This document shows positions 1 through 43,811 of a stretch of 64,000 nt of DNA, piece by piece; position 1 is the first letter of the stretch, and each line of letters begins with the position of its first letter. The stretch is from Dictyostelium discoideum. Its lineage: Eukaryota. Location: positions 4,960,001-5,024,000 of the forward strand of contig CM000152.2 of NCBI GenBank assembly GCA_000004695.1, in the 5' to 3' direction. The notes below the pieces were generated by a model. That model searched no databases. It saw only the letters and a program-made list of their open reading frames with translations, and was not told the origin of the DNA. Position numbers and translations under genes: made by a program.

Positions 1-414
1 ATGAAAAAGAGAAATCATCAAAATTATTAAATAATATTTTACCAGATTTTATTATTGAAAATATTGTATATGATTTTGAAAAGAGAGATATTGTAATTCC
101 AGAGCCAGAAGAGTACAAATCATGTTCAATACTTTGTTTTGATATTGTTCAATTTACAAATATGAGTGCAAAATTAGATTCACCATCACGTTTGGTTGAT
201 TTGTTAACCCAAGTATTTAGAGAATTCGATACAGTAGTCTTAAGAAATGGTTGTCAAAAAATTAAAACTGATGGTGATGCTTACATTTGTGCTTGTGGTT
301 TAAAGAGTAAAAAGAAAGCAAAGAAACAAATGCCAAATAGTAAAAGTACTCCACTTTTACAATCAACTTCTTCAACAAGTGTAAATAATATAGATTTAGA
401 TAAAGATAATAAAG

Positions 415-445
<31 letters not shown>

Positions 446-3128
446 TAGTAACAATAATTTTAAAAATAAAAATAATATTATTAATAATAATAATAATAGC
501 AATAGCAACAACAACAATAACAATAACAGCAACAACAACAACATCAATAACAGCGGTAATGATGATGATGATGAAGAAATTGAAGATAGTGAATTAGAAC
601 ATTTTGAAAAATTAATTGATGTTGCAATTGAAATTATGAATTTAGATGTTTTAAAAGAGACTGGTAATACTGAAGGTATTCAAGTACAATTTAGATGTGG
701 TATTGCAGCTGGTTCAGTTTATGGTGGTGTTATTGGTTCTCAAAAGTATCAATTCGATATTTGGGGTGATACAATCGCCAGAAGTCATACCCTCGAACAA
801 TTGGGTCAACCAGGTAAAGTTCATGTTGGCGAAACAATCATGACCCACAAAAATTGGTTGAAAAAGTGGCAATATAATTATAATATCGTTTCAAACTCTG
901 AATGTAAAGATCAAGAACATGATTATGAATTTCATAAAGCTCATGGTGAATGTATAACAAGTTACTTTGTAGATTGGAAAGATGACTATAGAGAGAAAAA
1001 GAAAAAAGATTTATCTTGTGACTTTAGTATTAATAAAGTTTTAAATGCTGAAACAATTGAATCAAAATCAAATAATAATAATTATAATAATAATAATTAT
1101 AATAATAATAATTATAATAATAATTATAATAATAATAATTTAAATAATAATAGTAATAATAATAATAATGAATATGGATCATCGTCTTCATCTTCTTCAG
1201 TATTAGGAGAAGCTGTTACCGAACAAATTGATTGCAACAATACAAATCCACCATTACAACATAAGAAATCACAATCAATTTTAACAAATAATGAAAATGA
1301 TATTGTTTCACCATCACTAACAAGTAATAGTCCAATTTTAGATACAACTGTAAATAATAATAATAATAATAATAATACCAATAATAATAATAAAAATCAA
1401 AATAATATTTATGGAAATAATAATAATAATGAAGAAGATTTTAAAATTAAATCAAAATCAAATAGTTCATTTGAAATTGAAATGTCAAATATTAAGAAAC
1501 CAAAGAGTAGATTTATTGATAGAGTTATGGGAATTTTACATCATGTTAAAATTAGTAATGATAAAATTGATAAAGAGATTATACAAATCGATGAAGATTT
1601 TGTAAAGGTTACAAAATTAAGAAAGTACTTTTTATTTTTTGAGAATTTAACCACCGAGAAATTCTTTCACAAATATGTTATTATCAATAATGTTGTTGAA
1701 ACTAAATTCTTTTTAGTCATTGGTTTAATATTACATTTAATGTTTTATTTAGATGATCACATTATGGATTCTGCACCTTATTTCAATAGTAATGTAATCT
1801 ATTTGGTTATGGGTATTGCATTTTTGGTTTACATTGGTTTATCATTCACTAGAATCTTTAGAACTCCATTGGTTTATCAAATAGCTTTCTTTATTCTCTT
1901 ATGCGCATTTGGTGTTTGTACAGTTTTAGAATTAATTAGATTCCAAAATCCATTAGCAAGATCTTCTTTAACTCGTGTTTGTGCAACTTTATTTTATTTA
2001 AATGTTTTCCATTCTTTAAATTTCTTATCTGTTTTATTTTTAAATCTTTTTATTTTTTGTAAGTATTTATTATATTAAATATAAATATAGAATTTATTTA
2101 TTATTAAAAAAAAAAAGATATTAATATATTTTTTATTATTTTTTTTAGCATTTTTCATAATTTGTAGTATTTTAATTTCACCAACTTTAACAAATCATTT
2201 ATATGAAACCGATTACATTGGATTTGTTATTGTTTTACTTATTCAAATTTGTTCATCCTATGGTATGAAATTGGCAATGAGAAAAGCATGGGTTGTAAAT
2301 TGTAAAATCAATTTTAAGACAATTAGTGTAAATAAAGAGAAAGATAAATTCAATTTCTTATTGAAATCAATTTTCCCACAATCTGCATTAACCAAATTAA
2401 GAGATATGATAGATACTCCAAATATTGAAACCAAAGGTATAGTTTATGTTCAACCACATCAAGATGTTTCAATTATGTTCATTCAAATTGCAGGTTTCCA
2501 AGAATATGATGAACCAAAAGATTTAATTAAGAAATTGAATGATATCTTTTCTTTCTTTGATGGTTTACTTAATCAAAAGTATGGTGGAACCGTCGAAAAG
2601 ATTAAAACCATTGGTAACACTTATATGGCGGTTTCAGGTTTAGATGGTAGTCCATCATTCTTGGAGAAAATGTCTGATTTCGCTTTGGATGTTAAAGCAT
2701 ACACAAACTCTGTTGCAATTTCAAGAGTAGTTAGAATTGGTATTAGTCATGGTCCTTTGGTTGCTGGTTGTATCGGTATCAGTAGAGCAAAGTTTGATGT
2801 TTGGGGTGATACTGCCAATACCGCCTCTAGAATGCAATCCAATGCTCAAGATAATGAAATCATGGTAACTCATAGTGTTTATGAAAGATTGAATAAATTG
2901 TTTTACTTTGATGATGAAAAAGAAATCCTTGTAAAAGGTAAAGGTAAAATGGTAACTCATGTACTTAAAGGTAAAAAAGATCTTGAACAAACAAACAAAT
3001 GGTTCACTAAACCACCCGAAGTTTGGGAAGTTAATGCTACTCCTGCTGGTATTGCCTCACCATTATCTGGAACTCTCTTGGGTGAAATTGGCTCATTCAC
3101 TACTCCAAGATTCCATCTTTCAAGTTAA
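1..3128 (+). CDS. acaA: 12-TM class III adenylyl cyclase, ACA-type (5' end outside window). Exons are approximately <1..2058 and 2149..3128 with a phase-1 intron. C1 catalytic domain at about 3-850, a second 6-TM block at about 1640-2260, C2 catalytic domain at about 2300-2900.
   Basis: Frame 3 is open from nt 3 (EKEKSSKLLNNILPDFIIENIVYDFEKRDIVIPEPEEYKSCSILCFDIVQFTNM...). Domain 1 carries both metal-binding Asp residues (FDIVQFT, KTDGDAY), which makes it C1-like. It is followed by hydrophobic helices, then an intron with GTAAGT at 2059 and TTTTTTAG ending at 2148. Domain 2 lacks the metal Asps but has the adenine-specifying Lys in EKIKTIGNTYM, the Asp in FDVWGDT, and the transition-state Asn/Arg in TANTASRM. 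That is the mammalian-AC/ACA order, not the transposed order reported for GCA. Poly-Asn inserts lie in the C1b region. Assigning it to acaA specifically is inference. Confidence 0.6.
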
Positions 3129-3445
3129 GAAGGCAAAACACAACAAATATATATTTATAAAAATTCAATTGTCAATAATAAAAATAATTTTGATGGAAAA
3201 GTTAATTCTTTTTTAATTGGGAAAAAAAAAAAAAAAAAACTAAAAAACTAAAACAAAAACTAAAAAAAAAAAAAAAAATTGTATTATTAAAAATAAATAA
3301 AAATAAATAAAAATAAATGTTAAAAATAAATACCCTTTTATAAAATAAATTATTATTTTTTAATTAAGTGAAAAAAAAAATAAAAATTATAATAATTTTT
3401 ATTTTTTAATTATTTATTTTTTATTTATTTGATTAAATTAAAAAA

Positions 3446-5153
3446 TTATGGTAATAGTTTTAAAGATTTATTAATTCTATTAAGTTTTTTCATTTTTCTA
3501 CAATTAAAAATCCAAGAAATTATGAAAGCAGTTAGAAAGATTAAAAACATAGAAAGTACCCCACAAAAGTAAGATAAAAGATTTTCCCTAAGTTCGTTCC
3601 ATTGTTTGGCAGTATCACTTGGAGTTTGACATGATTCGGCCAAATCAGTGAATGACGAATCACCATAGAAATTTGTATTTGCTTCATCACAAACAATTAG
3701 TTGGAAATCATTGGTACTTGATGGTGCAAATACAAATTGATTATTGTTGGCAATTACGTCTGATAAGAGAGAATTTATAATCGATGTACCATTTGAAAAA
3801 ATACGATTTGAAAATAAATAAATATTAGACATCTGAGGGCTGAAGAGTCCAACATTACCATGGAGGTTACCTTCTTTGGTGTTAAAATCACTAGAAACAT
3901 ATAAATCAATAGTACTATTTTCAAAGTATGCAAAGGTACTAATTAAGGTTATAACATCCATTATCACACCACTACTATAGTTAAGCTCAACATTGAATTG
4001 ATTTGCATTCAAAAGAGAATTAACAGAATAAATTAGTGATCTTGAACCATCAAATTCTCCAGAAATACTAACTTGGTTTAATGAAACACGACAATTGGAA
4101 AATCTAAGAAAAAAGGAATATATACTTCCATAATATTTTGTATTAATAATTGATACATTATTCATTGTAAAACTACCTGCAGTAATTGAGGCAATTGAAC
4201 TTCCACGATAAATTAAAAAAGAGTTGAAAATTGTATTTGAGATTGTTAAGTCAATTATAGGACCAAAATCATAATTAAGTACAAATGGGACATTATTATT
4301 GACATTGGTGATGTTATTTGAACCAAAATTGCAATTGTTTAAGATGAATGAAATATTGATATTATCATTTGGATATTGTTCACCAAAAAAGTATTGTGTT
4401 ACCATTTTCATTTCTAAATCTTGACTTGATTCATCATTTTTTAACAATTTAGAGGAATCCATTGATAATGGTTTTTTAATTCCATGATTTTTTAAATCAT
4501 TTGATTCACTACTAATTCTTGAATTACCTGAGAGTGAAAAATATGGAGAATAAAGAGATTCACATAAAAAATTTACATTTTCAATATCAACATTTAAAAA
4601 TGCATTTACACCTATATAACCTTGGAAAAAACAACCAGACTCTGAAACATTTAAAGAGTTACATCCAGAGATTGTTACATATCTAATCATAATGTTTGTA
4701 GGAACAATACTAGTTGCTTTATATGGATATTCGACAATGAATATTGGTGATACTGTACCATTTATATTTGGAACTAAAAATTGTACCAAATCATTTGAAT
4801 TTTGGGCACTAATAGAAATATTCAAACCATATAAATTTATTGGATTTTGAGAATAATAATTTCCTGAATCCAATAAAATTTCAATTGAATATTGATTATA
4901 TTCATAGGATTTGATTTGTTGAATTGAATAACCAATTGTTTTTCTAAAAAAAAAAAAAAAAAAAAAAATTAATTAATTATATATCATTACCAATAAATTA
5001 TTATCATTTTTTATTTATATATACTTACCATGGAGATGTAAAACTACCACAAGAGTTATTATCATTACCACTATTGGAAATGTATTTTGAGAATTGTATG
5101 TTACCAAAAGTTGAATTTATTAAAAGGAAAATTAAAAGTATTAAGTATTTCAT
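3446..5153 (-). CDS. Type I membrane/secreted glycoprotein, paralogue A. Exon 1 is 5153..5029 (signal peptide MKYLILLIFLLINSTFG...), exon 2 is 4943..3446. C-terminal TM plus a short basic tail. May be a pseudogene, see findings.
   Basis: Minus-strand ATG at 5153, cleavable signal peptide, donor GTAAGT at 5028, sole acceptor AG at 4945-4944, long ORF 3446..4873, many N-x-S/T sites. The C-terminal hydrophobic helix is followed by WIFNCRKMKKLNRINKSLKLLP. It is colinear with the downstream paralogue B (NLYGLNI...ISG..., FAYFENSTI..., LFSNRI.SNG.SI motifs). Confidence 0.55.
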
Positions 5154-5872: not shown

Positions 5873-7936
5873 CTATGCAGAATCATTGATTGATAAAAGT
5901 GATTTTGCTGCTTCTGCAGCTTCTTCTTCTTTTTCCTTTTTTAATTTTTGAATTGCTTTTCTTTTTCTTCTACAACACTTTCCAATAGCTGAAATGGTGA
6001 ACATAGTAACGAAAACCAATACAATGGAGAGAACACCACTTAAATATGATATGATAATTTCAAGTAAGTTGGCGTTAGTATTCCAAAATGATAAAACATT
6101 AATTTTAGCTTGACAAGAATCAGAGTAAGAAGTGAATTGATAATCACCATAGAATCTTGATATTCCATAGTCACATTGGACCAATTGATAAGAGTTTACA
6201 CTGTAAGGTGCATATTGGAATTGATTATTATTTGCTGATACATCTGAAGATTGAGAGTAAACAATTGATGAACCATTGGAACTGATACGATTAGAGAAAA
6301 GGTAAAGCTCAGAATTTACTGGATTGAAAATAGCAATATTACTTGAGAAATAATTTTTAACATCAGATTTTACGGATAAAACGATAGTGCTATTTTCAAA
6401 GTAAGCAAATGATTCTGTTAAAGTGATAAGATGATATGAAATTTCATAGTTTTTCTCTGAAATTATATTGAATTGATTGGCAGTTACAATACAATTAACA
6501 GCTTTGATAAATGGACCACTTATGGAACCGGAAATACTAACTTTGTTAAAAGAGACACGAGCATTAACCAAATAAAAGAGAGAGTTTGTTCCATTTGACA
6601 CAAATGATAAAGAAACAATAGAAACATTATCCATGGTTAAACTACCTCCGTAAAGTTGTACAAGTGGAGCACTATTAAATATATAATTTGTGTTAAAGAT
6701 TGAATTTGTGATTTTTAAATCAATGGTAAAATCAAAATTGGCATTTAAAACAACTGGATATTGATTATTCATTTGATAATTAAATTGACAATTGTTAAAG
6801 GCGAAAGAAATGTTAATGTTGTCATATGGATAAGAGTTTACACCAAATACTTGGTCTACAACTTCCATATAGAGATCTTGATAATAATTGTTATTATCAT
6901 TTTCACTATTATATGAAGATTCTGATGAATATGATTCTGGTGAATATGATTCTGATGAATATGATTCTGATGAATATGATTCTGATGAATATGATCCTGA
7001 TGATTCTGATCCTGATGATTCTGATGAATATGATCCTGATGATTCTGATGAATATGATCCTGATGATTCTGAATTGAATTCAGATGAATATGATTCTGAA
7101 TTTGATTCTGAATTTGATTCAGATGAAGAGTAAGATTCTGAACCATATGGAAGTTGATTTTTTTTTTGAGCAAGTTGATCATAAGAGTTATAGTTGTTGG
7201 AAACTGAAAAATATGAAAAATCGCTATTTGCACATGAAAATATTACATTTTCTGTTTTTACATTTAAAAATAGATTTTGGTAGGAATTAATATTTGATTG
7301 TAAAAGTAAACCATTCCAAGTGTATGATAAATCACAAGTAACAGTAAGATCTCTAAAAACGATATTTGTTGGAATAATATCATAATAATTTGAATGGTCT
7401 ACAGTGAATTGTGCTGTACCTAATGATGATGATGCTAAAAGTTGAACCGATTCTCCTGGGTTGGCTGCTCCAATTGTAATATTTAAACCATATAAATTGG
7501 TTGGTGTTAAAGAATGATGTGTTCCACGACCCAATAAAATTTCAATTGAAAATTGCTCATAAGAATATGATTTGATTTGATTAATTACATATTCAATTGA
7601 TTTACTTTTGTTTTTTTTTTTTTTTTTTGATAAAAAAAATAAAAAAAATAAATAAATAAAAAATTAGTATAAAAAATAATTTTGGTAAAATAAATAAATA
7701 AAAATAAATAAAAAATAAAAAATAAAAATAAAAATAAATAAAAAAAAAAATAAAAAAAAAAATAAAAATAAAAAATAAAAAAATAAAAAAAAAAAATTAA
7801 CTTACCATGGTTCCGTTGATGCACCACAATTTGGTTGATTATAACCATTAAAATCAACATATTTTTGAAATGTGATTTGGCCAAGTGATATATTTACTAT
7901 TGAAAGTAATACTACTAAAAGATTAAATATTTTCAT
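5873..7936 (-). CDS. Type I membrane glycoprotein, paralogue B. Exon 1 is about 7936..7806 (signal peptide MKIFNLLVVLLSIVNISLG), exon 2 is about 7604..5873. Contains an internal Ser/Glu/Tyr repeat insert. C-terminal TM plus a Lys/Glu-rich tail.
   Basis: Signal-peptide exon with donor GTAAGT. The intron is 100% A/T low-complexity sequence. The acceptor gives the in-frame junction ...EP-C-KSIEYVINQIKSYSYEQFSIEILLGRG... The architecture matches paralogue A. A repeat block at 6880-7135 encodes (SESY/SESSGSY)n. Confidence 0.6.
6880..7135 (-). repeat. Coding minisatellite of about 14 copies of an 18-bp unit (gattctgatgaatatgat and variants) inside paralogue B. It encodes a Ser-Glu-Ser-Tyr-rich low-complexity linker.
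   Basis: Direct tandem repetition is visible in the sequence. It produces three overlapping spurious ORFs in the ORF track (6826..7077, 6856..7233, 6888..7133). Confidence 0.8.
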
Positions 7937-8464: not shown

Positions 8465-10967
8465 TTAAACCTTTTGATATCCATCATGTAAAGATTCAGT
8501 TAAATTAATATCAATTTTAGCACCTTTGATTTGATCACAGTAAGGAGTGTCAGAAAAATAGATTTGATTTATATTCTTTGGTTCCAATTCTTTTTTAATT
8601 CTTTCAGCCAAACCTGGAATACAAGAGAAACCACCAGTGATGACCAATTTTGAGAGATCATCTAAATTATTTTTAAAAGCTGGACGATTTCCCATTTGAT
8701 TGACGAAATTGGTGAGTGTAACGATAATATTTTCAGAGGCTTTATTTTTTTCAGAGAGTTGTGGATTAAAGTAGATTTCTGGAATTTTCGTAATGAATTG
8801 TTTGGAGGTTGGAGTATTTCTTTGTTCATTTTCAAAATCTAGACTAACTCTGACCATTTGATACCATGTAGGTTTTAATGAAAGACCACCTTTAGTAGTA
8901 GAATAGGAGGAATCTTGATAAGAGTAACTTTTAGTATACAAATCTTTATGACATTCAGAATTTTCACCGGCCATTGCAGCTATGCTATTAGCTTCATCAA
9001 TGATATCTTGACCAATCATAGATAAATTGATTGCATCAATTTGTTGACCATCTTGAAAAGCGGCTAAAACAGTGGTTTGACTACCAAACATTAAAACCAA
9101 ACCACTCTTTAATCCATGGGATTGTAATGCTAATAAACCACCATTTTTATAGAGAACCAATTCATTTGGTAGGTATCTTCTAATCTTTGAAAGATAATTA
9201 CCACCATCAGAACCAGCATAATTCAAAGGATTTACAATTAAAACGATTGGGGCATTTATTCTTATTCTTTTGAGTACTCTTTGAACCGAATATTTAATCA
9301 ATTCTTTCAATGGTTCATTCTCGAGGAATCTACCATTTCTAACACCAAAATAAAGGTCAGAGGTGGTTGTATCAGGACCAACTACCCATTTGTATCTATC
9401 CATTGACGACATAACATAGTGAGGTTGATATTCTTGACGTTTACCAACTCTTTGAACAAAAGAAAAAGCATAATTTATAGGTTCTGAGGAACTACAAAGT
9501 TTAACTCTCTCTGAGCCTATATCTAGGATCACGATTTGATTCTTTTTATAAAAGGTGTGAATATTTTGATAGGTTAACATCCATCTCTTGACATCCATTT
9601 TGGTTGGTTTTGATTTACTAGATTTAACAATTGATTCGTGGATTGAATTAACTTTGAAATTCAATACGTAATTCTTTTCAAAATTGAATGCCTCCATTGA
9701 GAAATCACGAATATAAATTCTTCTCCAAAGTGAATCCTTTGCCACGATGGTTGCAAAGTACTTACTGGTGACCCTTAATCTACCCAAATCAATTGGTTTC
9801 AATAGCACTAAAATATCGAATAGTTGCACCTCTGGTATGGTTGATAGTGTCACCAATGGTTTCTTTCTCAATGGTGATGTCACTGAAATATTCATATTCT
9901 TTATCTTTTGAGTGATTGCATCAATTGATGGATAACCCGTCAATAACATTTGAGCCTTTACATATAACGAAATTGCAGACTCAAGATCTTTCTCATCCTT
10001 TTCCTTTGAATCGGCTTTAAAGAATGTTGTCTTTGCCAATTCCATCTCTGCCTTCTCTTGAGCTGAAATCTCTTCATCCAAATTCTTATCTATACGAAGG
10101 AACATCATATCGACACGAACAATATATTTGACACCCTCTAAAACTTCTCCACCATCATGGAGAGTATCATGATTGAAAATGATTGCACTACCACTCTCTG
10201 GAACTACTGTGTCCTCCAATACATGTTTATCCAATAACAATGGGTTCTCAGAGGTAAAGAAATTGGTATTACCACCTTTAAATCCATCGTTTAAATAAAT
10301 TTGAATGGTATAAATTGAACGTCTATCTGGGTTGTCTGCAAATACTGCATCATAATGTGCCTTGAATCTACTACCTGGTAAATATTTGCTAAATGTAAAA
10401 CAATTATCAATACCAATTGGAATCCAAACTCCCTTTTGATCGAAACCATAAGGTCTAACACCTTCCAAATCACTCTCTCTAAAAATTGCTTCTAATCTTT
10501 CCCATAAAATATCTGATAATTTATCACTCTTTCCTAAATATCTTAAATTATTACGATATCCAGTTGGAAATTCTTTTTCAATTGAAACATAACCTTTTCT
10601 TTCACTTTCTTCAATAAAATGTCTTTATTTATTTTATTTTTTTTAAAAAATATATATATACAAATAAAATAAAATAAAATAAAATAAAAAATAAAAAATT
10701 AATTGATTTTTTTTCTTTTTTAAAAAAAATTTTATAAAAAATAAAAATAAAAATAAAGAAATAAATTAGAATCACTTACAAACATTCTTCTTTTGTTAAA
10801 ACATTTGTAACTTTAAAACCATTTGAGGTTGATAATTTTAAATCTGTTCTTTTTAATAATTCAGGTTTAAAATTTTCATTAGTAATGTTTTCATTAAAGC
10901 TTAATAAATCACTACCTGTTATAACCCTATTTTCTGGACATGTTGTTGTTGCACCTTCTTCTGCCAT
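8465..10967 (-). CDS. Multidomain protein: N-terminal 2OG-Fe(II) oxygenase (prolyl-4-hydroxylase-like) domain, central F-box, C-terminal actin-related (Arp-like) domain. Exon 1 is about 10967..10780, exon 2 is about 10622..8465.
   Basis: Exon 1 reads MAEEGATTTCPENRVITGSDLLSFNENITNENFKPELLKRTDLKLSTSNGFKVTNVLTKEEC then GTAAGT. Exon 2 continues in phase (L)HFIEESERKGYVSIEKEFPTGYRNN...GVRPYGFDQKGVWIPIGIDNCFTFSKYLPGSRFKAHYDAVF...IIFNHDTLHDGGEV, which gives an HxD...H iron triad. The F-box-like segment is LFDILVLLKPIDLGRLRVTSKYFATIVAKDSLWRRIY. The actin fold signatures are IVILDIGSERVKLC, LIVNPLNYAGSDGGN, GLVLMFGSQTTVLAAFQDG and LVITGGFSCIPGLAERIKKEL. Confidence 0.55.
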
Positions 10968-11938: not shown

Positions 11939-13927
11939 TTATTTTACTTTTGTTGCCATTGGTACTATATCAATTGGTAAATTAAATCTAAAACCTTTTA
12001 AATTTATAAGTTTAACAGTTGGTGGTATTGAACCTTTAGTGAAAATTTGACAAATATCATAGATTGATATTTCTTGAACAGATTCAGGTATTATACCTTT
12101 TGTTATTGTATGAGAGAAACCATCGGTAAACATTAAATATTTAATAGTATTTGGTATTGAACCAACGGTTAGAGGATGACGTATATCACCCAAATACAAA
12201 GTATCAACCGAGGAAGGTATGATATCAGTATTGATATGATGAGTGAACCCATTTGCAAATATTAATTTCCTAACGACACTTTCATTGATTGAACCTTTTT
12301 GTAAGGGTTGAATGATATCGAAAAAGTATAATCTTTCCAAAGCAACAGGGAAATTGAAACCATTGTTAAATACATCGGGAGTGATAGTGAAATTGAAACC
12401 ATTATTAAACACCAACTCTTTTATTGTTGAGGGTATGGACCTACGAGTGAGTGGTTTCTTTATTGAACCTATATAAAGTGTTTGTACGGAACGTGGTATT
12501 TTACTAGCTTTGATAATATGTGAAAATCCATTATCAAAGTATAACTCTTGAATGGTATTTGGTATTGATTCTTTAGTCAATGGTTGTACTATATCGTTGA
12601 TGTATAATGATTGAACCGTTGGTGGTATAACATCACTACAAATTGGATGTTGATAACCTTGATCGAAAAACAACTCTTTTACACCTCTACCCACTGACCC
12701 CCTAATTAATGGTTCCTTTACATTATGTAACATCAATCTACTAATCGATGGTGGCATAATATCATTTGTAATTAAAAAACTATATCCATGTGATAAACTT
12801 AACATTGTCACCGTTGGAGGTATTGATTCCTCTGTCAATGGTTCAACAATATCACAAACATACATCTTTACAACTGATAATGGTATTATCTCTTTTTTAA
12901 TCTTTTGATTAAATCCACTACAAAATATAATTTCTTTTAATTTATTATTCTTAAATTCATTATTTGTGTTATTATTATTTTTATTATTATTATTATTATT
13001 ATTGTTGTTGTTATTATTGTTATTGGTATTAATTGATGATTTAATTAATAAAGATTGATTTGTTAAAGGTTGTTCTAATTTACCTAAAAATAATTTAACA
13101 ACAGTTGGTGGTATCATTGTTTCACCGATTATTTGATGAGAGAAACCATTGAAAATATACAAATTTAATAAATTACCATTATGTGGTAATGATAATTCAT
13201 CCAATGGCTCAACTATATTACCAATTGAAATGGATGTAATTGTTGATGGAATTGTATCGGCTCTAATAGTATGATTAAAATCATCATAAAATATAATCTC
13301 TTTAATTGTTGAAGGTATTGAATCTGATGTTAATGGTTTTTCAATTGAACCAATAAATAATTTTTCAACTGTACATGGTATAAATCCTTTACTAATTTCA
13401 ATATTAAATCCATCATATAAATATAAATTCTTTACACTTGATGATATTTTAATTAAATTATTATTATCTTCTTCCTCCTCTTCTTCTTTTTCTTTTTCTT
13501 TTTCAATATTTTCAATATTTTCAATATTATTATTATTATTATTATTATTATTCTTTTTATTTTTTTTATTTTTTGATAATTTTGTAATTGCTAAATTTAT
13601 AATACCATCTGGAATTGGTTCGCCGTGATTTAAATAAAATTCTTTATCTTTACAACATTCTAAAACTATTTTTTTATCAATCATTAAATGACTATTATTA
13701 TTACTTTTGAATGGTTGAGAATCAACAATGAAATTGGTTTTAATTAGTTCAAATGCTGTATCCAAAATATCTTGATTAATTATTAAATTACTTTCTTTAA
13801 AATGTTCATATCTTTTTAATTTCCTTTCAACTAATCTATTGGTTTTATCACTATCCTTTAATAATGTTATATATTTATTTTGTTGATCTTTTTGTTTATT
13901 AATTATTTCAACTGATGTTTGTTGAAT

Positions 13928-13986
<59 letters not shown>

Positions 13987-14761
13987 GCTGTTGTTCTGAA
14001 TTATTACTATTATTATTTATAGCACCAGATGAAGATGATAATGTAGTAGAGGGAGTAGATGTTGTTGTTGTTGTTGTTGTTGTTGCTGTTGCTGTTGTTG
14101 TTGTTAATGGTTTTAAAATATTATCTAAATCATATAAATTTATATTGTCATTATGTTTATTTATTAAATTTGTAATTAATTGATTATCTGTATCAATTTC
14201 AGATTTAATTTGTAGAAAGGTTTCTTCATTTTCTGATAGTTTAGTTTCTAAAGTTCTCTTTATATTGAGTTCTAAAATTGATAAAATGTTATGTAGTTGT
14301 TTGAATTTTGATGTTAATGTTGTTAGATTGACTTTATGTCTATCTTGAATTTGTTGAAAACAATCCTCCACTGCGTTCATTATCGCTTTATCACTCTCTC
14401 TATATCCTACCAATGATGGAAATTGTTCTTTAAATTTGTCCAATATCTTTTTAGATTTCTCTAGATTCAATTCACTGAATTTATGTCCATTATGCGTTGA
14501 TATTATACATTTAACACAAACTGGACTAATACATGAATCACATATATACACTATATCATTATCTCTATGATATGAACATTTTGAATCTTCAATCTCTTCT
14601 ATATAATTATCTTCTCCACCACTATCAACTCCCTCGCCACCATTTTCTTCATCTTTAAAATAATTATTAAATGTATTATTATTATTACTAATATTATTGT
14701 TATTATAACAATTATTATTATTATTATTATATATTGAGTTATTTATTCTTGAAGGAACCAT
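11939..14761 (-). CDS. B-box zinc finger, coiled-coil and FNIP-repeat protein (940 aa).
   Basis: Single ORF. The B-box-like Cys/His cluster is CSYHRDNDIVYICDSCISPVCVKCIISTHNGHKFSEL. It is followed by a coiled-coil region with poly-Q and poly-T/N tracts. After that come about 20 FNIP repeats (…FNNGFN…L.FG..FNQPL…IP.S(V/I)..L.FG). FNIP repeats are a Dictyostelium-specific family. Confidence 0.7.
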
Positions 14762-14903: not shown

Positions 14904-15136
14904 GTAGAAATTAATTTTTAAATTTCCAAATTTGAAAAAAAAAAAAATTTTTTTGTAACGCTACACCATAAATTTTCGAATTTTTAAAATAATGATAAAA
15001 AGAAAACTATAATTTTTTTTTTTTTTTGTGTGGTGGGTTTAAGAAGAAAAAAAAAAAAAAAATTTTTGATTTTTCGCATGACAACCTTTCCATTTATTTT
15101 ATTTTATTTTTTATTTTTTTTTTTATTTTTTTTGTT

Positions 15137-15176
<40 letters not shown>

Positions 15177-15774
15177 AAAAAACAAAACTTTGGGAGTGAT
15201 GTCATTTATTCAAAACCAATGAAAAGAAAAGTAAAAATTAAAAATAAAAATAAAATTATTATAAAATCCCAATAAAAAAAAAAATGAGAAAAAAATTAAT
15301 TAAAATAAAGCTCGGAAAGAGTTTCCGATTTTTTTTTTTTTTTTTTTCCAACCAGGCTATTATTTTTTTTTTTGTAATTATACTGAAAAAAAAGAAAAAA
15401 AGCATTTTTTGGAGAAATATATTTTTTAAAGATTGTAATAATAAATAAAAAGAAAGTTTTTCTTATAGTGAAAGGAAATTATGGGTTTGCTGTGAACAAG
15501 AGATTACTTTGCTCTTGACATCTTCATATATTAAAAAAGATATAAAATTGAAAAAATTAAAATAAAATTTTTTTTTTTTTTTCAGGAATTGAATCGGGTT
15601 ATAATTAAAAAAAAAAAAAAAAAAAATATGAATAGATGTTATTCAAAATCCATAGAGATAAAGGGCATATATATATAAATAATTTCGAACACTAAAAAAA
15701 TACTAATACAAATTATATTTCATATTGACTTAAAATTTTTTTTTTTTTTTTTTTCAATAACACTATTTTATTTT

Positions 15775-16524
15775 TTATTGAGGTGTTGTTGCTTTTGCTT
15801 TTTTAATTGCTTTCATTTTATCTAATAAATTTTTTTGATCTTTAAAAATGGTTGAAGTTATTTTTTTACATAATGACCCAAATTCAAAGTTTTCTTCTTT
15901 GCTATTAAATTTTTTATAAGATTGTTTGATTACTTCCTCAATACCTTCTTTGTATGAAACTAAAAATAAAAATAAAAAAAAAGTTAGAAAAGTTTTATTT
16001 ATTTTTTTTTTGATTAACTATTACTTACTATATTCAACATGTTTTTCAAAAAGTGGAATTAATTTTTTCAAATCAACAATAATTTGATCTCTTTTAGTTT
16101 GTTGATCTAAAATTTGTTTTTCAATTGCTTTTTTATCACTAGTTTGATCATCTGAATCAAGTATATATTGAAGTGTGTAAATTGTTTGAACTGGTTGACA
16201 AATTGATGTCTATAAATTGATTGATAAAAATTAGGAAATGAGGGGGTGGGGTGGCTAACCACTTTTGAATTATATTATTATTATTATTATTATTATTTTT
16301 TTTTTTTTTTTTTTTAATTAATTACTTACAACAACTTTTTTAACATTACCAAGTTCTTCTCTTAATTTTTCAGTTTCATTATATTCTTCACCATAATCTT
16401 CTTTAACTGGTGCTTCTGTTTGAATTGGATGATTCATCCAATCTGCATGTGATTCCATACCAGTTGGAATTTCTTTACCACCTAATGGTACAACTTTTTG
16501 TTCATGTTCTGAATGTGGATCCAT
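15775..16524 (-). CDS. Small three-exon gene of unknown function (about 190 aa). Exons are about 16524..16330, 16209..16029 and 15959..15775.
   Basis: Exon 1 is the ORF MDPHSEHEQKVVPLGGKEIPTGMESHADWMNHPIQTEAPVKEDYGEEYNETEKLREELGNVKKVV then GTAAGT. Exon 2 reads TSICQPVQTIYTLQYILDSDDQTSDKKAIEKQILDQQTKRDQIIVDLKKLIPLFEKHVEY, with phase 1 and donor GTAAGT. Exon 3 reads (I)SYKEGIEEVIKQSYKKFNSKEENFEFGSLCKKITSTIFKDQKNLLDKMKAIKKAKATTPQ*. The frames are consistent across canonical splice sites. I recognised no domain. Confidence 0.45.
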
Positions 16525-16648
16525 TTTAATATATCTTTATTATTATTATTATTTTTAACCAAAAACTTTTAAACTTAAGGGTTTGTTATTTGAGTCTGAT
16601 TAGAAAAATTAAAAATAAAAATAAAAATAAAAAAATTTCATTGCCCAA

Positions 16649-16696
<48 letters not shown>

Positions 16697-17090
16697 CAAA
16701 AAGTTAAACACATAAAAATTCTCGCATTTTGAATTTTTGTGATATTTTAAGTCATTTTTTCAGCCAAAACAAATAAAATTTTTGGTTAAAAAAAAAAAAA
16801 AAAAAATTAAATAATGCAAAAAACAGAATGATTACATCCTTTTTTTTTTATATTTTAAAATGGTCATTTGGCTATTTTTGAGCTCTCTTTTTTTTTCTAA
16901 AATACTAAATCCATATTAAAAATAAATGAAAATAAATCATTGTTATAAAAAAAAAAAAAAAGAAAATAAAATTTTTTTTTTTCCAGATTCTAAATTTTTA
17001 TTTTTATTTTTATTTAATAAGAAAAAAAAAAAAAAAAAAAAAAAAAAATATTTATTGTTATTAATTTTTTAAAAAATTTGATTGAATTGA

Positions 17091-18545
17091 TTATTTTGGT
17101 AATTTTTTTAATTCATGTAATAACCAAATGGCAACACTTAATAAAGTTAAACTACCAGTTTGATGAGCAGCACCTAAAGAAACTGGAACAAAAGTTAAAA
17201 GGGTTGTAATACCTAAAGCGACTTGAGCGGTACCAACAGCTAAAAGACAATTTGTTGCTAAACGAGCTTTTGGTGACAAAGCAAGACGACCACGATAAGC
17301 GAAAGCGGATAAAGCTAAAATTGAACCATAAGTGATTGTAGCCAAAACTCTATGTTGGAACTGAACGGTAACATCATGTTCAAACATATTCTTGTAGGCT
17401 GGTTTAATCTTTGGATTAATGATATCATCTGGAATCCATTGATGACCCATTTTTGGAAAAGTATTATAAACCAAACCAGCGTCTAAACCAGCGACGAATG
17501 CACCACTCATTGCAGTTAAAAATATTAAACCACTTACTTGATGAGAGTATTTCTTCATTTTTTCAATTGTGAATGATGATTTTTGTTGAGCAAGTGTCGA
17601 CATTGCAGACTTCAATTTCTGCATCATTGCAGGTGACAAAGCTGATGGTCTGACCAAGCCCAAGCCAAACCAAAGCAATGCCATATAAATCACAAATGCA
17701 CTACCTAAATGGGCGGCTAAACGGTATTGACTGACTCTTGGTATGTCGCTACCACGATCTTGGATCAACTTTTCATCCAAACCGGATTTCACCATATACC
17801 AACCCAATGCACCTTGTGCACCACCCATTAAAAATACAACTGATAACTTTTTAGCTAGTGAACGATTGATATAACCTTTCTTTAAATACCACACAAATGG
17901 GAAAAAGAAAGCTACACCAATAACTCTACCCAATAAACGATGAGAATATTCCCAAAAGAAGATCTCTTTAAATTCACTCAATGTCATACCCATATTCAAT
18001 CTTTTATATTCTGGAAATTGTTTATACTTTTCAAATTCAGCTTCCCATTCCTCTTGAGTAATTGGTGGAATTGCACCAACAACTGGTTTCCAATCAACAA
18101 TTGATAATCCTGATTCTGTTAAACGTGTAATACCACCAATAACAATCATTGCACCAACTAATCCACATGAAAATAATAACCAATTACCAACTTTTTTATT
18201 ACCTTTACTTTGTTCTGGTTCTTTATAATCTTCTTCATTATTATTACTACTATTATCATTTGTTTTTTCTTCTTCTTTTACTTGTTCATTTGAATTTGTT
18301 TTATTTTCATTTGAATAAAATCTTTTATAATAATTATTATTATTATTATTTAATGAAATTATTGAATTTAATTTTGAATTTGATTGTAAAAAACCATTAT
18401 TAAAACTTTGATTAATATTATTATTTTTTGATAATCTAGATGATACTGATAAAATATTACTATTGTTTATAATAAGGTTTGATTTTGTTTGTTTAAAGAT
18501 AGATGGCTTTAAACATCTTAAACCAGCTCTATTCAACATTGTCAC
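17091..18545 (-). CDS. cox15: Heme A synthase COX15, mitochondrial (484 aa).
   Basis: Single ORF. N-terminal presequence MTMLNRAGLRCLKPSIF, then a poly-N/S linker. The conserved COX15/CtaA core follows: GNWLLFSCGLVGAMIVIGGITRLTESGLSIVDWKPV...EFKEIFFWEYSHRLLGRVIGVAFFFP...MGGAQGALGWYMVKSGL...FQHRVLA, with multiple TM helices and His residues. Confidence 0.8.
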   Translation of the reverse strand: MTMLNRAGLRCLKPSIFKQTKSNLIINNSNILSVSSRLSKNNNINQSFNNGFLQSNSKLNSIISLNNNNNNYYKRFYSNENKTNSNEQVKEEEKTNDNSSNNNEEDYKEPEQSKGNKKVGNWLLFSCGLVGAMIVIGGITRLTESGLSIVDWKPVVGAIPPITQEEWEAEFEKYKQFPEYKRLNMGMTLSEFKEIFFWEYSHRLLGRVIGVAFFFPFVWYLKKGYINRSLAKKLSVVFLMGGAQGALGWYMVKSGLDEKLIQDRGSDIPRVSQYRLAAHLGSAFVIYMALLWFGLGLVRPSALSPAMMQKLKSAMSTLAQQKSSFTIEKMKKYSHQVSGLIFLTAMSGAFVAGLDAGLVYNTFPKMGHQWIPDDIINPKIKPAYKNMFEHDVTVQFQHRVLATITYGSILALSAFAYRGRLALSPKARLATNCLLAVGTAQVALGITTLLTFVPVSLGAAHQTGSLTLLSVAIWLLHELKKLPK

Positions 18546-18869
18546 TTTTTTTTTTTTTTTGGTTTAAACAAAAAAAATAAAAAATAAAAAATGATAACAA
18601 AAAAAAAAAAAAAAAAAAAATGAAAAAAAATAAAAAAAAATGAAAAATTAACAACGCAATTTGTCAATCACCATAATTCGGGAATTTCAAGTAAAAAATA
18701 AAATAAAAGATATTTTTGAAATTTACATTAATTTTAGTTTTTTTTTAAAAAGAAAGAAAATAGTTTTTTTTTTTTCTTTTAAAAGAAAGAAGAGATTTAA
18801 AAAAAAAAGATCCAACATTTTATTAATATTTTTTTTTTTTTTTTGAATTTAAAAAAAAAAAAAAAAAGT

Positions 18870-21800
18870 TTAATCTTTTGGTTGGAAGAGAAAATCATCT
18901 AAACCATCAGATTGTTGATTTGAAGTTTTAAATTGATCAAGGTCAACATAACATAAATCTTCAAATTCTTCATCAAAGTCAACAGGGATTTGATTCTTTT
19001 TTGGAGGTTTATTTGGTGTAGTTTTAGGTGATGAAGTTGTTGTTGTTGTTGTTGTTGTGGTGGTTGCTTTTTTTTTGGTTACTTTTGATGGAGATGGTTT
19101 TGTTGGGTTAGTTGTATCTTTATCTTTTGTTTTTTTTACAGTTGTTGATTTTGAAGAAGCAACAGTAGAAGCAGCAGCTTTTGAAGATTTTAAAGCAGCT
19201 GGTTTCTTTGAGGTTTTGGGTTTATTTTTTGATGACATCATTTCATCTTCAAAATTTGATCCATCATAAATTGCATCTGAAATATCATCTTCATCAATAC
19301 CATCTTCGTCATCATTATCATATTCATCATCTTCATCGTCATCAGAATTATCTAAATCGCTATTATCATCTTCTTCTCCACCACCACCACCACTACCATT
19401 CTTTAATTGAAGTTTTAATAATTTCTCTTCTTTTCTTCTTTGTTTATCATCATATTTTTTTTTTCTAATTTGATCTTGTTCCTCTACTTTTTTAATTAAT
19501 GAATCTATGAAATCATCTACACTTTGTTCACCATGTTCTAATTGACCAGCATCTTCAGCATTTAAAGATTGACCGTCTTCATCATCTAAAACTCTGCCCA
19601 ATAGAGTTTTCTTTGATTCCACTAATGACCAAATCATTTCATCCACTGTACCTAATGCTATTAAATATTGAACTAAAACCGAAGAGGTTTGACCATAACG
19701 ATGAGCTCTATCCTCTGCTTGAAATAAAACACCAGGTGTCCATGATAACTCTGCAAATATTACACAAGTGGCAGCGGTTAATGTCAAACCAGTACCAGCG
19801 GCAGTAATACTTAATACAGCCACCCTACAATTTGGATCATTTTGAAAATCATTAACATAGTCATTACGATTTTGAGCGGGTGTTGAACCATCGATTTTAA
19901 TAAATTCTAATTTCTTTTTATCAACCTTGATCTTACCTAACATATGAACTATACCATTGATCACTTCTTTATGATGTGCAAATATTAAAAACTTTTGATC
20001 AATTGGTGCATCAACTAACTTCTCCTTTAGAAATTGAGTGACCGCTGTCAATTTATATAAACCTGTATCACGAAGTAATTTAAAGAATAGACCTTGTCTT
20101 GAGTTTTTATTTTTGAATGAAGTTTTCATATCGGTATTTGGATCAAGATATACTTTTCTATGTTGATTAATCTCTACCAATGTTTTTTGAACTTCTTTTA
20201 ACTTTGTCTTATCCAATTTTACCAAAATTCTTTCTCTTCTCTTTTCGGGTAACTCTGTCATTACATCATCTTTTAAACGTCTAATCATAAATGTATTCAA
20301 GTAAAGATTTAACTCTTTCATATTGGAACAACCTGAAGTATTGAAACAGAATTTCTCTTGAAAGGCAGCACAATATCTGAATGCATAGTCCCTCCATTGC
20401 ATAAAGTATGGATTGATACAAGATATCTGAATGAATAGCTCCATTGGTCTGGATAATGCAGGTGTACCAGATAGTAGTATACAACGTTTTGATCTTTTCA
20501 ATACTTCAGCTGTTGATTTTGAACGTTGTGAATTAAATTGTTTGATATAATGACATTCATCAGCTATGACAACTTTAAAATTCTTTTGTAAAATTTGATC
20601 CTTCTTTTTAGTGACTAAATCATAACTAATGATATTGATCATACCATTTAAACCACATTTACCATTCATTACTAAATTTATTTCTGATGATTGAATTTTA
20701 TTTGGAAAAAACTTTTCAATTTGGTCTGCCCAAACTAAACGAAGTGATGATGGTGCTATAATTAATAATGGCCATTCCTCTTTATAATGATATGCAATTG
20801 AAATACCTTGTATAGTTTTACCTAAACCCATATCATCTGCAATTAAACATCTACCTCCTTTTTCAATACCAAATTCAATACCTTTAATTTGAAATGGTAA
20901 TAATGTTGATGGTAATTCTGAAAAGTTTATATTTAAATTTTTATTATTATTATTAAATGATGTATTAGTTGTTGCAGTATTTATGGTTGTAGTTGTAGTA
21001 GTTGTTGTTTTTTTATTACAAAACTGATTTACAATATGATTTGGTAAACAAATTATATTTAATTGTGATTGACGTAATGCTCTAAGTTTTGAAACTAATA
21101 ATGCGTGATGCTCAACATTAAATATCCACCAATTACCAATATCATATTCATCACAATAAGCATCTGGTATACTACTAAAGATATCTCTAAGTACTGTATT
21201 TTGTGGGTCCGCACATGAAAATTGCTCTGGTGTAATTAATTGAAATAATAATTCTTTTTTAATATTAAATTGAGTTTGCATAATTGCTAAAATATTTGAT
21301 TGTGTTGGTAAATTATTATTATTATTTTGGTTTTGATTTAAAAATGATTGTTGTTGTTGTTGTAATGGTTGTGGTTTTGCTAAAATTGATGGTATTGGTC
21401 GTTGTTGTTGTTGTTGATGTTGTTGTGCATTCTGTGATGGAACTAAATTATTTTGTGGTTTTTGAGGTAATGATGGCTGTAATGATGTTGATCTTTGAGG
21501 TATTGATGGTTGTAATGGTTTTTGAGGTAATGAAGGTCTCAATGGTGCTAAATGATTATTGCTCAGTATTGGTTTATTGGTATTAGTATTTATTGTTGAC
21601 TGTACAGATGGAGAGGGAATAGATGATGATGATGAAGGTGGTGGCGCTGTTGATATTGAACCACCATTAACAGTGGGTGAAGAAGAGGCAGCTGCCTTCA
21701 CTGGAAGTGATGGTCTCAATGTAAGACCACTATTCATATGTGTCGACACATTTTTTGGTGGTGATATATTTGTTAGAGGTAATGCTGTATTTTTATTATT

Positions 21801-40988: not shown

Positions 40989-43811
40989 ATGGCAAAAAAG
41001 AAATTTGTAGAAAATACAAACTGGAAAAAGATTGACACAGATAATCAATTAATTTTTGAACAAGGTGGTTTTTTAGGTTTGGAAGAAATTGATCCAAATG
41101 ATTACTTTTTAACTGATAAAAATGTTGATAAAATTGAAAAACAACAAAAACAAAAACAAAAACAAGAACAAGAACAAGAACAAAAACCAACAAACAAATT
41201 AACAACAAAATCAACAACAAAATCAACACCAGTACAAAACAAGAATCAAAAACCAGTTGACAAAAAGAGAAAATCAAAAAAAGGTAATGATGATTCAGAT
41301 AATGAATATAGTGGTTATCAAGATGATAGCGATCAAGATGATGAATACTCTGCAGCTAAAAAGAAACCAAGAATTATAAAACCAACTGAAACAGTTGACA
41401 TGGGTACTGAATTATTAAATTCTTTTGTTGAAGGTACTGTCCATAATAAAAAGAAACAAAGAAAAGGAATAAAAGTTAAACAAATTATCGATGATAATGA
41501 TAATGATTTTGAAGATGAAGAGGAAGAAGTTAAACCACAACAAAAATTACAAAAACAAAAACAACAAGAACAAAAGCAAAAACAACCACAAAAACAACCA
41601 CAACAACCAAATAAAAAAAATAATAAAAAGGAATTACAAAAAGAAGAAGAGGAACAAATGGAGGAGGAGAAGGAGGAAGAAGAAGTACAACAAGAAGAAG
41701 AAGAAGAAAAAGAAATTAAAAAACCAATTAAAGAAAAAAAAGTTAAAACTCAAAAACAAATTGAAGCAGCTAAAAAAAATATTAATAAATTAGAAAAGAT
41801 TAAAAAGAGAAAAGAGATTTCAGAACAAAAAACAATTTCAAAAGAGGAACAAGATCAATTAGATATGTCAGAATGGAATAGTTATAATCTTGATCCATTA
41901 ATTCTTAAAGGTTTACGTTCATTAGGTTTCTCAAAACCAACAGAAATTCAATCATCTGTTATTCCAGTTGCAGTTTCATCAGGTTATGATGTTATTGGTG
42001 CAGCTCAAACTGGTTCGGGTAAAACTTTAGCATTTGGTATTCCAATGGTACAAAGAATTTTACAACATTTAAGAAAACATGGTCAAAATGTTGAAAATAA
42101 AGCTAACAAACAACAAAATGATAATGATGACGAAAATGAAGATGTTGAAGAGGAGGAGGAAGAAGAGGAAGAAGAGGGTAGATCAAAAGAATATAGAAAA
42201 TTATTTTCATTAGTAATTTGTCCAACTAGAGAATTAGCAATTCAAGTTACAAATCATATTAAATCAATTATTTCACATACAAATTTAAAGGTTATTTCAA
42301 TTGTTGGTGGTATGGCATCACAAAGACAACAAAGAGTTTTATCAAAGAGACCAGAGATTGTTGTTGCGACACCAGGTCGTCTTTGGGAATTAATTACTGA
42401 AGGTCATCAACATTTAGTTGAATTGGAAAGTTTATTATGTTTAGGTATTGATGAAGCAGATCGTATGGTTGAACAAGGTCATTTCGCAGAGTTGGAAAGT
42501 ATTTTAAAGACATTACCAATTCATCGTACAGCAATGTCAAAGAAAGAAAGATTAAAAAAGAAAGAAACCGAAGAAAAGCGTAATAAACGTAGAAAAGTTG
42601 ATAAATTAAATGACAAGGGTGAAATGATTAAAGGCGATCAAGATGATATGGATGATCAAATTCCAGATGAAGAAATGGAAGAATTAGAACAAGAGGAACA
42701 AAACCATCTTACAACTACACACAAAAGACAAACATTTGTTTTCTCTGCAACACTTGTAAACATACCAGGTGATGGTGCACCAACAAGTCAAAAAAAGAAA
42801 TATAGAAAATTGACACCAATTGAAAATTTAATTGAAAAAGTTCGTTTCCAACGTGACTATAAATTAATTGATGTGACTCAAAAGAGATTGACAGCAAAGA
42901 ATCTTTTAGAAACTAAAATCTTTTGTAATCTTGAAGAAAAGGATATGTATCTTTATTACTTTGTTGAAAGATATCCAGGTCGTACATTGGTATTTGTAAA
43001 TTCAATTGATTGTGCACGTCGTTTAATTCCAATTTTCAATATATTAGAGGTACCAGTATTTGCACTCCATGCACAAATGCAACAAAAGCAACGTTTAAAG
43101 AATCTTGATCGTTTCCGTACTTTAGATAATGTGGTTTTAATTGCAACCGATGTTGCCGCTCGTGGTTTAGATATTCCATTGGTTCAACATGTAATTCATT
43201 ATCAAGTACCACGTACAACTCAATTATACATTCATCGTAGTGGTCGTACTGCTCGTTCAGATCAAGATGGTATTTCAGTTGTATTGGTAACTCCAAAAGA
43301 ACGTCCACTCTATATTAAATTGGATTCTTCAATCGAGCATGATATTGGTAATTTCCCAACCGATATTCGTTATATGGAGGGTGTTAGAGATAGAATTGAA
43401 TTGGCAAAAGAAATCGATAAATTATCTCATCAATCATTAAAAGATAATAGAGAGAAAAGTTGGTTCAAAAAACAAGCTGAAGAAATGGATATCGAATTGG
43501 ATGGTGACTTTTTCGGTGAAAACTCTGATGATGAACAATCTGAAGATACTCGTATAGCTGAACAAAAGAAACAATTTAAATTAAAACAATTAAGAGCTCA
43601 ATTGAAACACTTACTCTCTCGTTCACTTTTACCAAGAGGTGTTTCTCAATCCTATATCACTGCTTCTGCAATTCAAGAATTAGAATCAAAGAGTCAATCT
43701 TCCGCTGCAACTGATTTCTCAAATAAAGCTAAAAATGTAATTGGTAAAAAAGCAAAACAACTTGCAATTGAAAATCATTCAAAATTTTTAACAAAAAATA
43801 AAAAGAAATAA
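40989..43811 (+). CDS. ddx24: DEAD-box ATP-dependent RNA helicase of the DDX24/Mak5 type (940 aa).
   Basis: Q motif and motif I (GFSKPTEIQ, AQTGSGKTLAF), Ia (PTRELA), II (DEAD), III (SAT), VI (HRSGRTAR). There are long acidic/basic insertions between I-Ia and II-III, as in DDX24/Mak5. The N-terminus is Lys/Glu/Gln-rich. Confidence 0.75.
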   Translation: MAKKKFVENTNWKKIDTDNQLIFEQGGFLGLEEIDPNDYFLTDKNVDKIEKQQKQKQKQEQEQEQKPTNKLTTKSTTKSTPVQNKNQKPVDKKRKSKKGNDDSDNEYSGYQDDSDQDDEYSAAKKKPRIIKPTETVDMGTELLNSFVEGTVHNKKKQRKGIKVKQIIDDNDNDFEDEEEEVKPQQKLQKQKQQEQKQKQPQKQPQQPNKKNNKKELQKEEEEQMEEEKEEEEVQQEEEEEKEIKKPIKEKKVKTQKQIEAAKKNINKLEKIKKRKEISEQKTISKEEQDQLDMSEWNSYNLDPLILKGLRSLGFSKPTEIQSSVIPVAVSSGYDVIGAAQTGSGKTLAFGIPMVQRILQHLRKHGQNVENKANKQQNDNDDENEDVEEEEEEEEEEGRSKEYRKLFSLVICPTRELAIQVTNHIKSIISHTNLKVISIVGGMASQRQQRVLSKRPEIVVATPGRLWELITEGHQHLVELESLLCLGIDEADRMVEQGHFAELESILKTLPIHRTAMSKKERLKKKETEEKRNKRRKVDKLNDKGEMIKGDQDDMDDQIPDEEMEELEQEEQNHLTTTHKRQTFVFSATLVNIPGDGAPTSQKKKYRKLTPIENLIEKVRFQRDYKLIDVTQKRLTAKNLLETKIFCNLEEKDMYLYYFVERYPGRTLVFVNSIDCARRLIPIFNILEVPVFALHAQMQQKQRLKNLDRFRTLDNVVLIATDVAARGLDIPLVQHVIHYQVPRTTQLYIHRSGRTARSDQDGISVVLVTPKERPLYIKLDSSIEHDIGNFPTDIRYMEGVRDRIELAKEIDKLSHQSLKDNREKSWFKKQAEEMDIELDGDFFGENSDDEQSEDTRIAEQKKQFKLKQLRAQLKHLLSRSLLPRGVSQSYITASAIQELESKSQSSAATDFSNKAKNVIGKKAKQLAIENHSKFLTKNKKK

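Follow-up and report, generated by a model that had tools for sequence, protein, structure and literature searches.

The acaA locus at the window edge

The window analysed here is a stretch of 64,000 nucleotides of Dictyostelium discoideum DNA (GCA_000004695.1, CM000152.2, positions 4,960,001 to 5,024,000 of the forward strand), and it opens inside a gene on the plus strand. Positions 1-3128 almost certainly belong to acaA (DDB_G0281545), the chromosome 3 gene for adenylyl cyclase A (ACA) of D. discoideum; they cover its 3' three quarters and encode residues 397-1407. The region is strongly AT-rich (GC 0.18-0.33). The features assigned to the gene are as follows, with the basis for each in brackets.

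1..2058, plus strand: acaA coding exon 3, 3' part, truncated by the window edge; residues 397-1081 and the first base of codon 1082 (open frame, identity to L004)
2059..2148, plus strand: acaA intron 3, 90 nt, GTAAGT..TTTTAG, phase 1, inside TM10/11 (the only splice giving 1407 aa)
2149..3128, plus strand: last acaA exon, residues 1082-1407, with the stop codon TAA at 3126-3128 (translation, L004 gene call)
105..854, plus strand: cyclase domain C1, ACA residues ~431-680, with an Asn/Asp-rich insert at ~nt 306-620 and AAT/AAC tandem repeats at 406-554 (AC9 and VC1 alignments)
855..1694, plus strand: cytosolic linker from C1 to the second membrane block, with poly-Asn and AAT repeats at 1071-1174 and 1353-1430
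1695..2270, plus strand: second membrane block, ACA residues ~961-1122, putative TM7-TM12, which holds the intron (Kyte-Doolittle)
2442..2972, plus strand: cyclase domain C2, window aa 784-960 (best Pfam stretch; AC9 C2 and IIC2 alignments)

Identification of the gene

The sequence upstream of the window edge was reached in steps: a protein search with a neighbouring gene matched its paralogue DDB_G0281817 and orthologues in wild isolates, one of these orthologues led to the corresponding wild-isolate locus (L003), and an LSM2 protein search led from there to a further locus, L004 (GCA_054883475.1, CM142509.1). Window positions 1..4371 are 100% identical to 16466..20836 of L004, in which a gene called at 15067..19593 encodes 1407 residues, carries PF00211 and has an end that coincides with window position 3128. 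The product read from the window is an exact suffix of this 1407-aa protein, starting at residue 397, and its 1011 residues are in line with the 'roughly' 1000 C-terminal residues that had been estimated in the initial annotation. The same annotation had suggested extending the contig upstream to find the start codon and the first membrane helices; L004 contains the first 396 acaA codons and the promoters, and so supplies both the ATG and six hydrophobic segments. A 1407-residue gene is also called in L003, with an LSM-domain gene ~4.2 kb beyond it, and the product is thus present in two independent assemblies.

Primers for the coding region of acaA have been described by Galardi-Castilla et al. 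as 'nucleotides 3 to 21', with a reverse primer at '90 to 110' (PMC2952602). Both primers match the L004 coding sequence perfectly, at nt 3-21 and at nt 91-111. The published promoter primers lie 0.4-3.9 kb upstream of the gene in L004, seven of the eight being exact and the most distal having 2 substitutions, and the matches at -452, -1277, -1809 and -2467 are at roughly the published distances. The acaA primers also map to the wild-isolate locus, with a few strain differences. The nearest gene upstream of acaA is lsm2, about 4 kb off (PMC2952602), and in L004 the distance from the end of an LSM-domain gene to the acaA ATG is 4231 bp, in agreement with the published value. The gene itself is recorded as DDB_G0281545 on chromosome 3 (PMC4831088). 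Since the primers, the distance to lsm2 and the chromosome 3 gene ID all match, the gene in the window is taken to be acaA, and no difference between the two was found at this locus. The initial annotation had read the window edge as a partial ACA-type adenylyl cyclase, possibly acaA, and this is borne out by the primers, the lsm2 synteny and the identical L004 record. The assignment is sequence-based and draws on published primers, synteny and a gene ID taken from papers, the 1407-aa product itself being unnamed in the records.

When the C-terminal 508 aa were used as query in a large protein search, all matches were of at most 43% identity, mostly unnamed or bacterial-named, with no dictyostelid cyclase among them. 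In addition, the precomputed Pfam entries give PF00211 for L004 15067-19593 and nothing for the ACA orthologue of 1407 aa at L003 12047-16598. Both the missing dictyostelid cyclases and the empty entry at L003 look like a gap in the databases and not like biology.

Strain variation and gene integrity

The exons of acaA share 98% amino-acid identity with those of the wild isolate. There are 65 base differences, 44 of them at third positions, and 38 synonymous codon differences as against 20 nonsynonymous ones; indels occur only in the Asn tracts (20 gap columns). The intron in the window (2059-2148) is identical to that of the wild isolate at 80 of 98 positions. As judged from this one wild-isolate comparison, acaA is intact and under purifying selection.

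These data bear on whether the window might hold, in place of functional acaA, a paralogue resembling ACA or a pseudogene. Other dictyostelids do have several aca genes, with three in P. pallidum (PMC9583560), and only part of the gene lies within the window. Against this, the frame runs uninterrupted through all 1407 codons, the splice sites are canonical, all of the catalytic residues are kept, the substitutions relative to the wild isolate are mostly synonymous, and the 5' end and promoter carry exact matches to acaA primers that have been used experimentally. A paralogue or pseudogene is therefore very improbable.

The Asn tracts at window positions 306-620, 1071-1174 and 1353-1430, which consist of AAT/AAC repeats and include the tract that splits C1, vary in length relative to the wild isolate. 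ACA nevertheless has 1407 residues in both strains, the change being offset by opposite length differences in the N-terminal Gly/His/Asn tracts. There is only a slim chance that the C1-splitting insert and the Asn tracts of the linker tune the folding, trafficking or regulation of ACA, as opposed to being neutral simple sequence.

Cyclase domains and membrane topology

The protein matches the class III cyclase family PF00211 with an E value of 1.2e-88 (296 bits) in three Pfam stretches, which correspond to C1, in two pieces, and C2. The closest solved structures in a PDB sequence search were full-length AC9, AC8 and AC5, with E values of 1e-41 to 1e-43 and collinear matches. Domain 1 (window aa 37-101 and 227-279) aligns to AC9 389-452 and 483-535, which is C1, and domain 2 (window aa 725-958) aligns to AC9 1001-1243, which is C2. 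At the level of sequence, this match to adenylyl cyclase domains is far beyond chance, and the two class III cyclase domains proposed initially are supported by both the PF00211 score and the collinear C1/C2 match to AC9. The gap within C1 is due to an Asn/Asp-rich insert of ~105 aa, coded by AAT/AAC repeats.

The first membrane block lies upstream of the window, where a Kyte-Doolittle plot of the full-length protein has six hydrophobic segments in residues 221-374. In the second block, residues 961-1122, five clear hydropathy peaks were seen, one of which (1055-1094) is a run of 40 uncharged residues. This peak is long enough for two helices, as a helical hairpin, and since both catalytic domains are cytosolic an even number of TM segments is needed; the second block is therefore consistent with six TM segments, the count being inferred. 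Accordingly, the hydrophobic block that had been placed between the two domains is present, and its designation as a 6-TM block comes from five peaks together with the parity argument, hydropathy by itself being insufficient for the count. With the first block from L004 and the second at 961-1122, the order TM block, C1, TM block, C2 is found.

This architecture is like that of the mammalian membrane adenylyl cyclases, which are collinear in the order TM6-C1-TM6-C2 and are represented by the AC5 C1/AC2 C2 crystal heterodimer and by cryo-EM structures of AC9, AC8 and AC5. The likeness extends to the metal-binding Asp residues of C1 and to the Lys/Asp pair, the Asn/Arg pair and the gamma-phosphate Lys of C2, with ~30% identity in the catalytic cores. 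Unlike the mammalian enzymes, ACA has a C1 domain that is split by the ~105-residue Asn-rich insert, has an Asn-rich linker of ~270 residues between C1 and the TM block, and is regulated via CRAC, Ras and mTORC2 (PMC11988041).

Catalytic residues and nucleotide specificity

Catalytic positions were mapped from a four-way alignment of ACA C1, ACA C2, the C1 domain of canine AC5 (VC1) and the C2 domain of rat AC2 (IIC2). The two reference sequences were checked against the PDB: the IIC2 reference agrees with 1CUL_B/1AZS_B at every one of 200 residues, and the VC1 reference matches 1CJK_A with an E value of 4e-127. Counting along the checked references gives D396 and D440 in VC1, and K938, D1018, N1025, R1029 and K1065 in IIC2. 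The roles of these residues are established from the structures of Gs-alpha/VC1/IIC2. The corresponding positions in ACA are as follows.

VC1 D396, metal-binding Asp: D443 in ACA C1 (codon 141-143); Q1194 in ACA C2
VC1 D440, metal-binding Asp: D488 in ACA C1 (codon 276-278); N1238 in ACA C2
IIC2 K938, adenine selection: K484 in ACA C1; K1234 in ACA C2 (codon 2604-2606)
IIC2 D1018, adenine selection: D648 in ACA C1; D1298 in ACA C2 (codon 2796-2798)
IIC2 N1025, transition state: A655 in ACA C1; N1305 in ACA C2 (codon 2817-2819)
IIC2 R1029, transition state: T659 in ACA C1; R1309 in ACA C2 (codon 2829-2831)
IIC2 K1065, gamma-phosphate: K1344 in ACA C2 (codon 2934-2936)

Thus C1 of ACA has both metal-binding Asp residues and lacks the Asn/Arg pair (A655 and T659 at these positions), and C2 lacks the metal-binding Asp residues (Q1194 and N1238). 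In guanylyl cyclases, Glu/Cys are found in place of the adenine-selecting Lys/Asp. The initial annotation had placed both metal-binding Asp residues in domain 1 and the Lys/Asp and Asn/Arg pairs in domain 2, and had argued from this for adenylyl and not guanylyl specificity and for the domain order of mammalian adenylyl cyclases and ACA. Each of these points holds on alignment: D443 and D488 align to D396 and D440 of VC1, the two pairs of domain 2 are K1234/D1298 and N1305/R1309, its purine positions are Lys/Asp and not Glu/Cys, and the first domain corresponds to C1 and the second to C2 in the alignments.

The overall topology is shared with GCA, the guanylyl cyclase of Dictyostelium that is encoded by gcA; it likewise is a 12-TM protein with two class III cyclase domains (PMC8684759; PMC11988041), and the PF00211 match fits adenylyl and guanylyl cyclases alike. 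On these grounds the window could have held gcA. That gene, however, is a separate one, DDB_G0275009 (PMC7877599), and not DDB_G0281545, and the locus in the window is the one that the acaA primers match and that has lsm2 as its neighbour. The residues also differ from what would be expected, as the purine-selecting positions of domain 2 are occupied by Lys/Asp and are not of the Glu/Cys type. GCA reportedly makes cGMP, and in work attributed to Roelofs et al. 2001 the functional roles of its two cyclase domains are reported to be transposed, whereas in the protein in the window it is domain 1 that carries the metal-binding Asp pair, as in adenylyl cyclases. With locus identity and residue layout both against it, gcA was rejected, and the likelihood that it is the gene in the window is vanishingly small.

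Reading frame and intron

On the plus strand, frame 3 has no stop between nt 3 and the GTAAGT donor at 2059, and reading on through the intron meets in-frame stops within 25 nt. The frame restarts past a T-rich ..TTTTAG acceptor at 2148 and runs to the TAA at 3126-3128. The exon pieces 3..2058 and 2149..3128 are 2056 and 980 nt long and the joined product has 1011 aa; since these lengths sum to 0 mod 3, the 90-nt intron is in phase 1 and cuts the codon of Ser1082 after its first base. The full acaA model has three GTAAGT introns (gene nt 676-763, 1226-1350 and 3458-3547), which are the only combination yielding 1407 residues, and the third of these is window 2059-2148. This intron falls inside the long hydrophobic stretch 1055-1094. 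A phase-1 intron in the TM block had been called initially, and the donor and acceptor, the frame and the 1407-aa product all agree with it; of the exons given at the time as <1..2058 and 2149..3128, the borders at 2058 and 2149 and the stop stand, but the frame begins at nt 3 and not at nt 1.

The 2058/2149 junction was read from genomic sequence. It is exceedingly improbable that the intron call is wrong and that the two reading frames are separate genes, as the donor is GTAAGT, the AG acceptor is T-rich, the frame is restored by splicing and stopped by read-through, only the 2059-2148 splice gives the 1407 residues recorded in two independent assemblies, and the junction falls within one continuous hydrophobic segment.

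Neighbouring genes

Other genes and matches were recorded along the window, and are listed here with their strands.

3446-5153, minus strand: DDB_G0281817, convergent with acaA; exon 1, encoding a signal peptide, at 5153-5029, followed by a GTAAGT intron
5873-7936, minus strand: paralogue of the preceding gene, with a Ser/Glu/Tyr-rich repeat insert
8465-10468, minus strand: matches to 2OG-Fe(II) oxygenase, F-box-like and, weakly, actin; wild-isolate product of 781 aa
11939-14761, minus strand: Asn/Gln-rich protein of 940 aa, in which a ~22-residue repeat occurs many times in tandem
40989-43811, plus strand: exact match to AX4 DDB_G0281841 (DEAD-box helicase ddx24)
54229-56793, minus strand: exact match to AX4 DDB_G0281851

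The genes at 3446-5153 and 5873-7936 are tandem paralogues that are ~45% identical; both products are predicted to be secreted or single-pass membrane proteins and have no Pfam domain, and among the search matches their orthologues were found only in Dictyostelium species. In DDB_G0281817 the codon at the junction of exon 1 and exon 2 is TG|A, an in-frame stop, with the A at window position 4943. In a wild D. discoideum isolate the same junction reads TG|T (Cys) and the product has 538 aa. The AX4 protein model of this gene (P0128, 502 aa) starts MFKKKTIGYS and is without the signal peptide. The TGA may be a nonsense change of the laboratory lineage. For the genes at 8465-10468 and 11939-14761 the records contain no product of a single ORF, which suggests a short intron upstream in each. 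The exact matches to DDB_G0281841 and DDB_G0281851 placed the window on chromosome 3 of D. discoideum; most of the other neighbouring genes are spliced, and exact look-ups of their ORFs gave no match. A search for tRNA genes in the window found none.

Predicted mechanism and role of ACA

From the domain order and the residues mapped above, ACA would be a 12-TM class III cyclase with six TM helices, C1, six further TM helices and C2, as in the mammalian membrane adenylyl cyclases. From established structural knowledge, C1 and C2 would associate head to tail and form a pseudo-heterodimer that has one active site. D443 and D488 of C1 are predicted to hold two divalent metal ions, and Lys1234 and Asp1298 of C2 to read the adenine ring; Asn1305 and Arg1309 would stabilise the transition state and Lys1344 would serve the gamma-phosphate. 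This combination of metal-binding Asp residues in C1 with adenine-selecting and transition-state residues in C2 points to cAMP, made from ATP, as the predicted product.

The gene is among the best studied in Dictyostelium, and aca-null phenotypes and enzyme assays have already been published. ACA converts ATP to cAMP (PMC11988041; PMC2952602), and signalling from the cAMP receptor cAR1 activates it through Ras proteins, CRAC and mTORC2 (PMC11988041). It produces the relayed pulses of cAMP that aggregation requires, and later in development it is also expressed at the organiser tip (PMC11988041; PMC2952602; PMC9583560). Transcription of acaA is from three promoters (PMC2952602).

The acaA gene at the window edge is therefore a gene that is already known, and no new biology arises from it. 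The argument for an adenylyl and not a guanylyl cyclase, which had been made initially from the residues, is sound. The value of the analysis lies in annotating the window edge cleanly, with exact coordinates for the exons, the intron and the stop, the extent of the protein encoded (residues 397-1407) and the positions of the catalytic codons.
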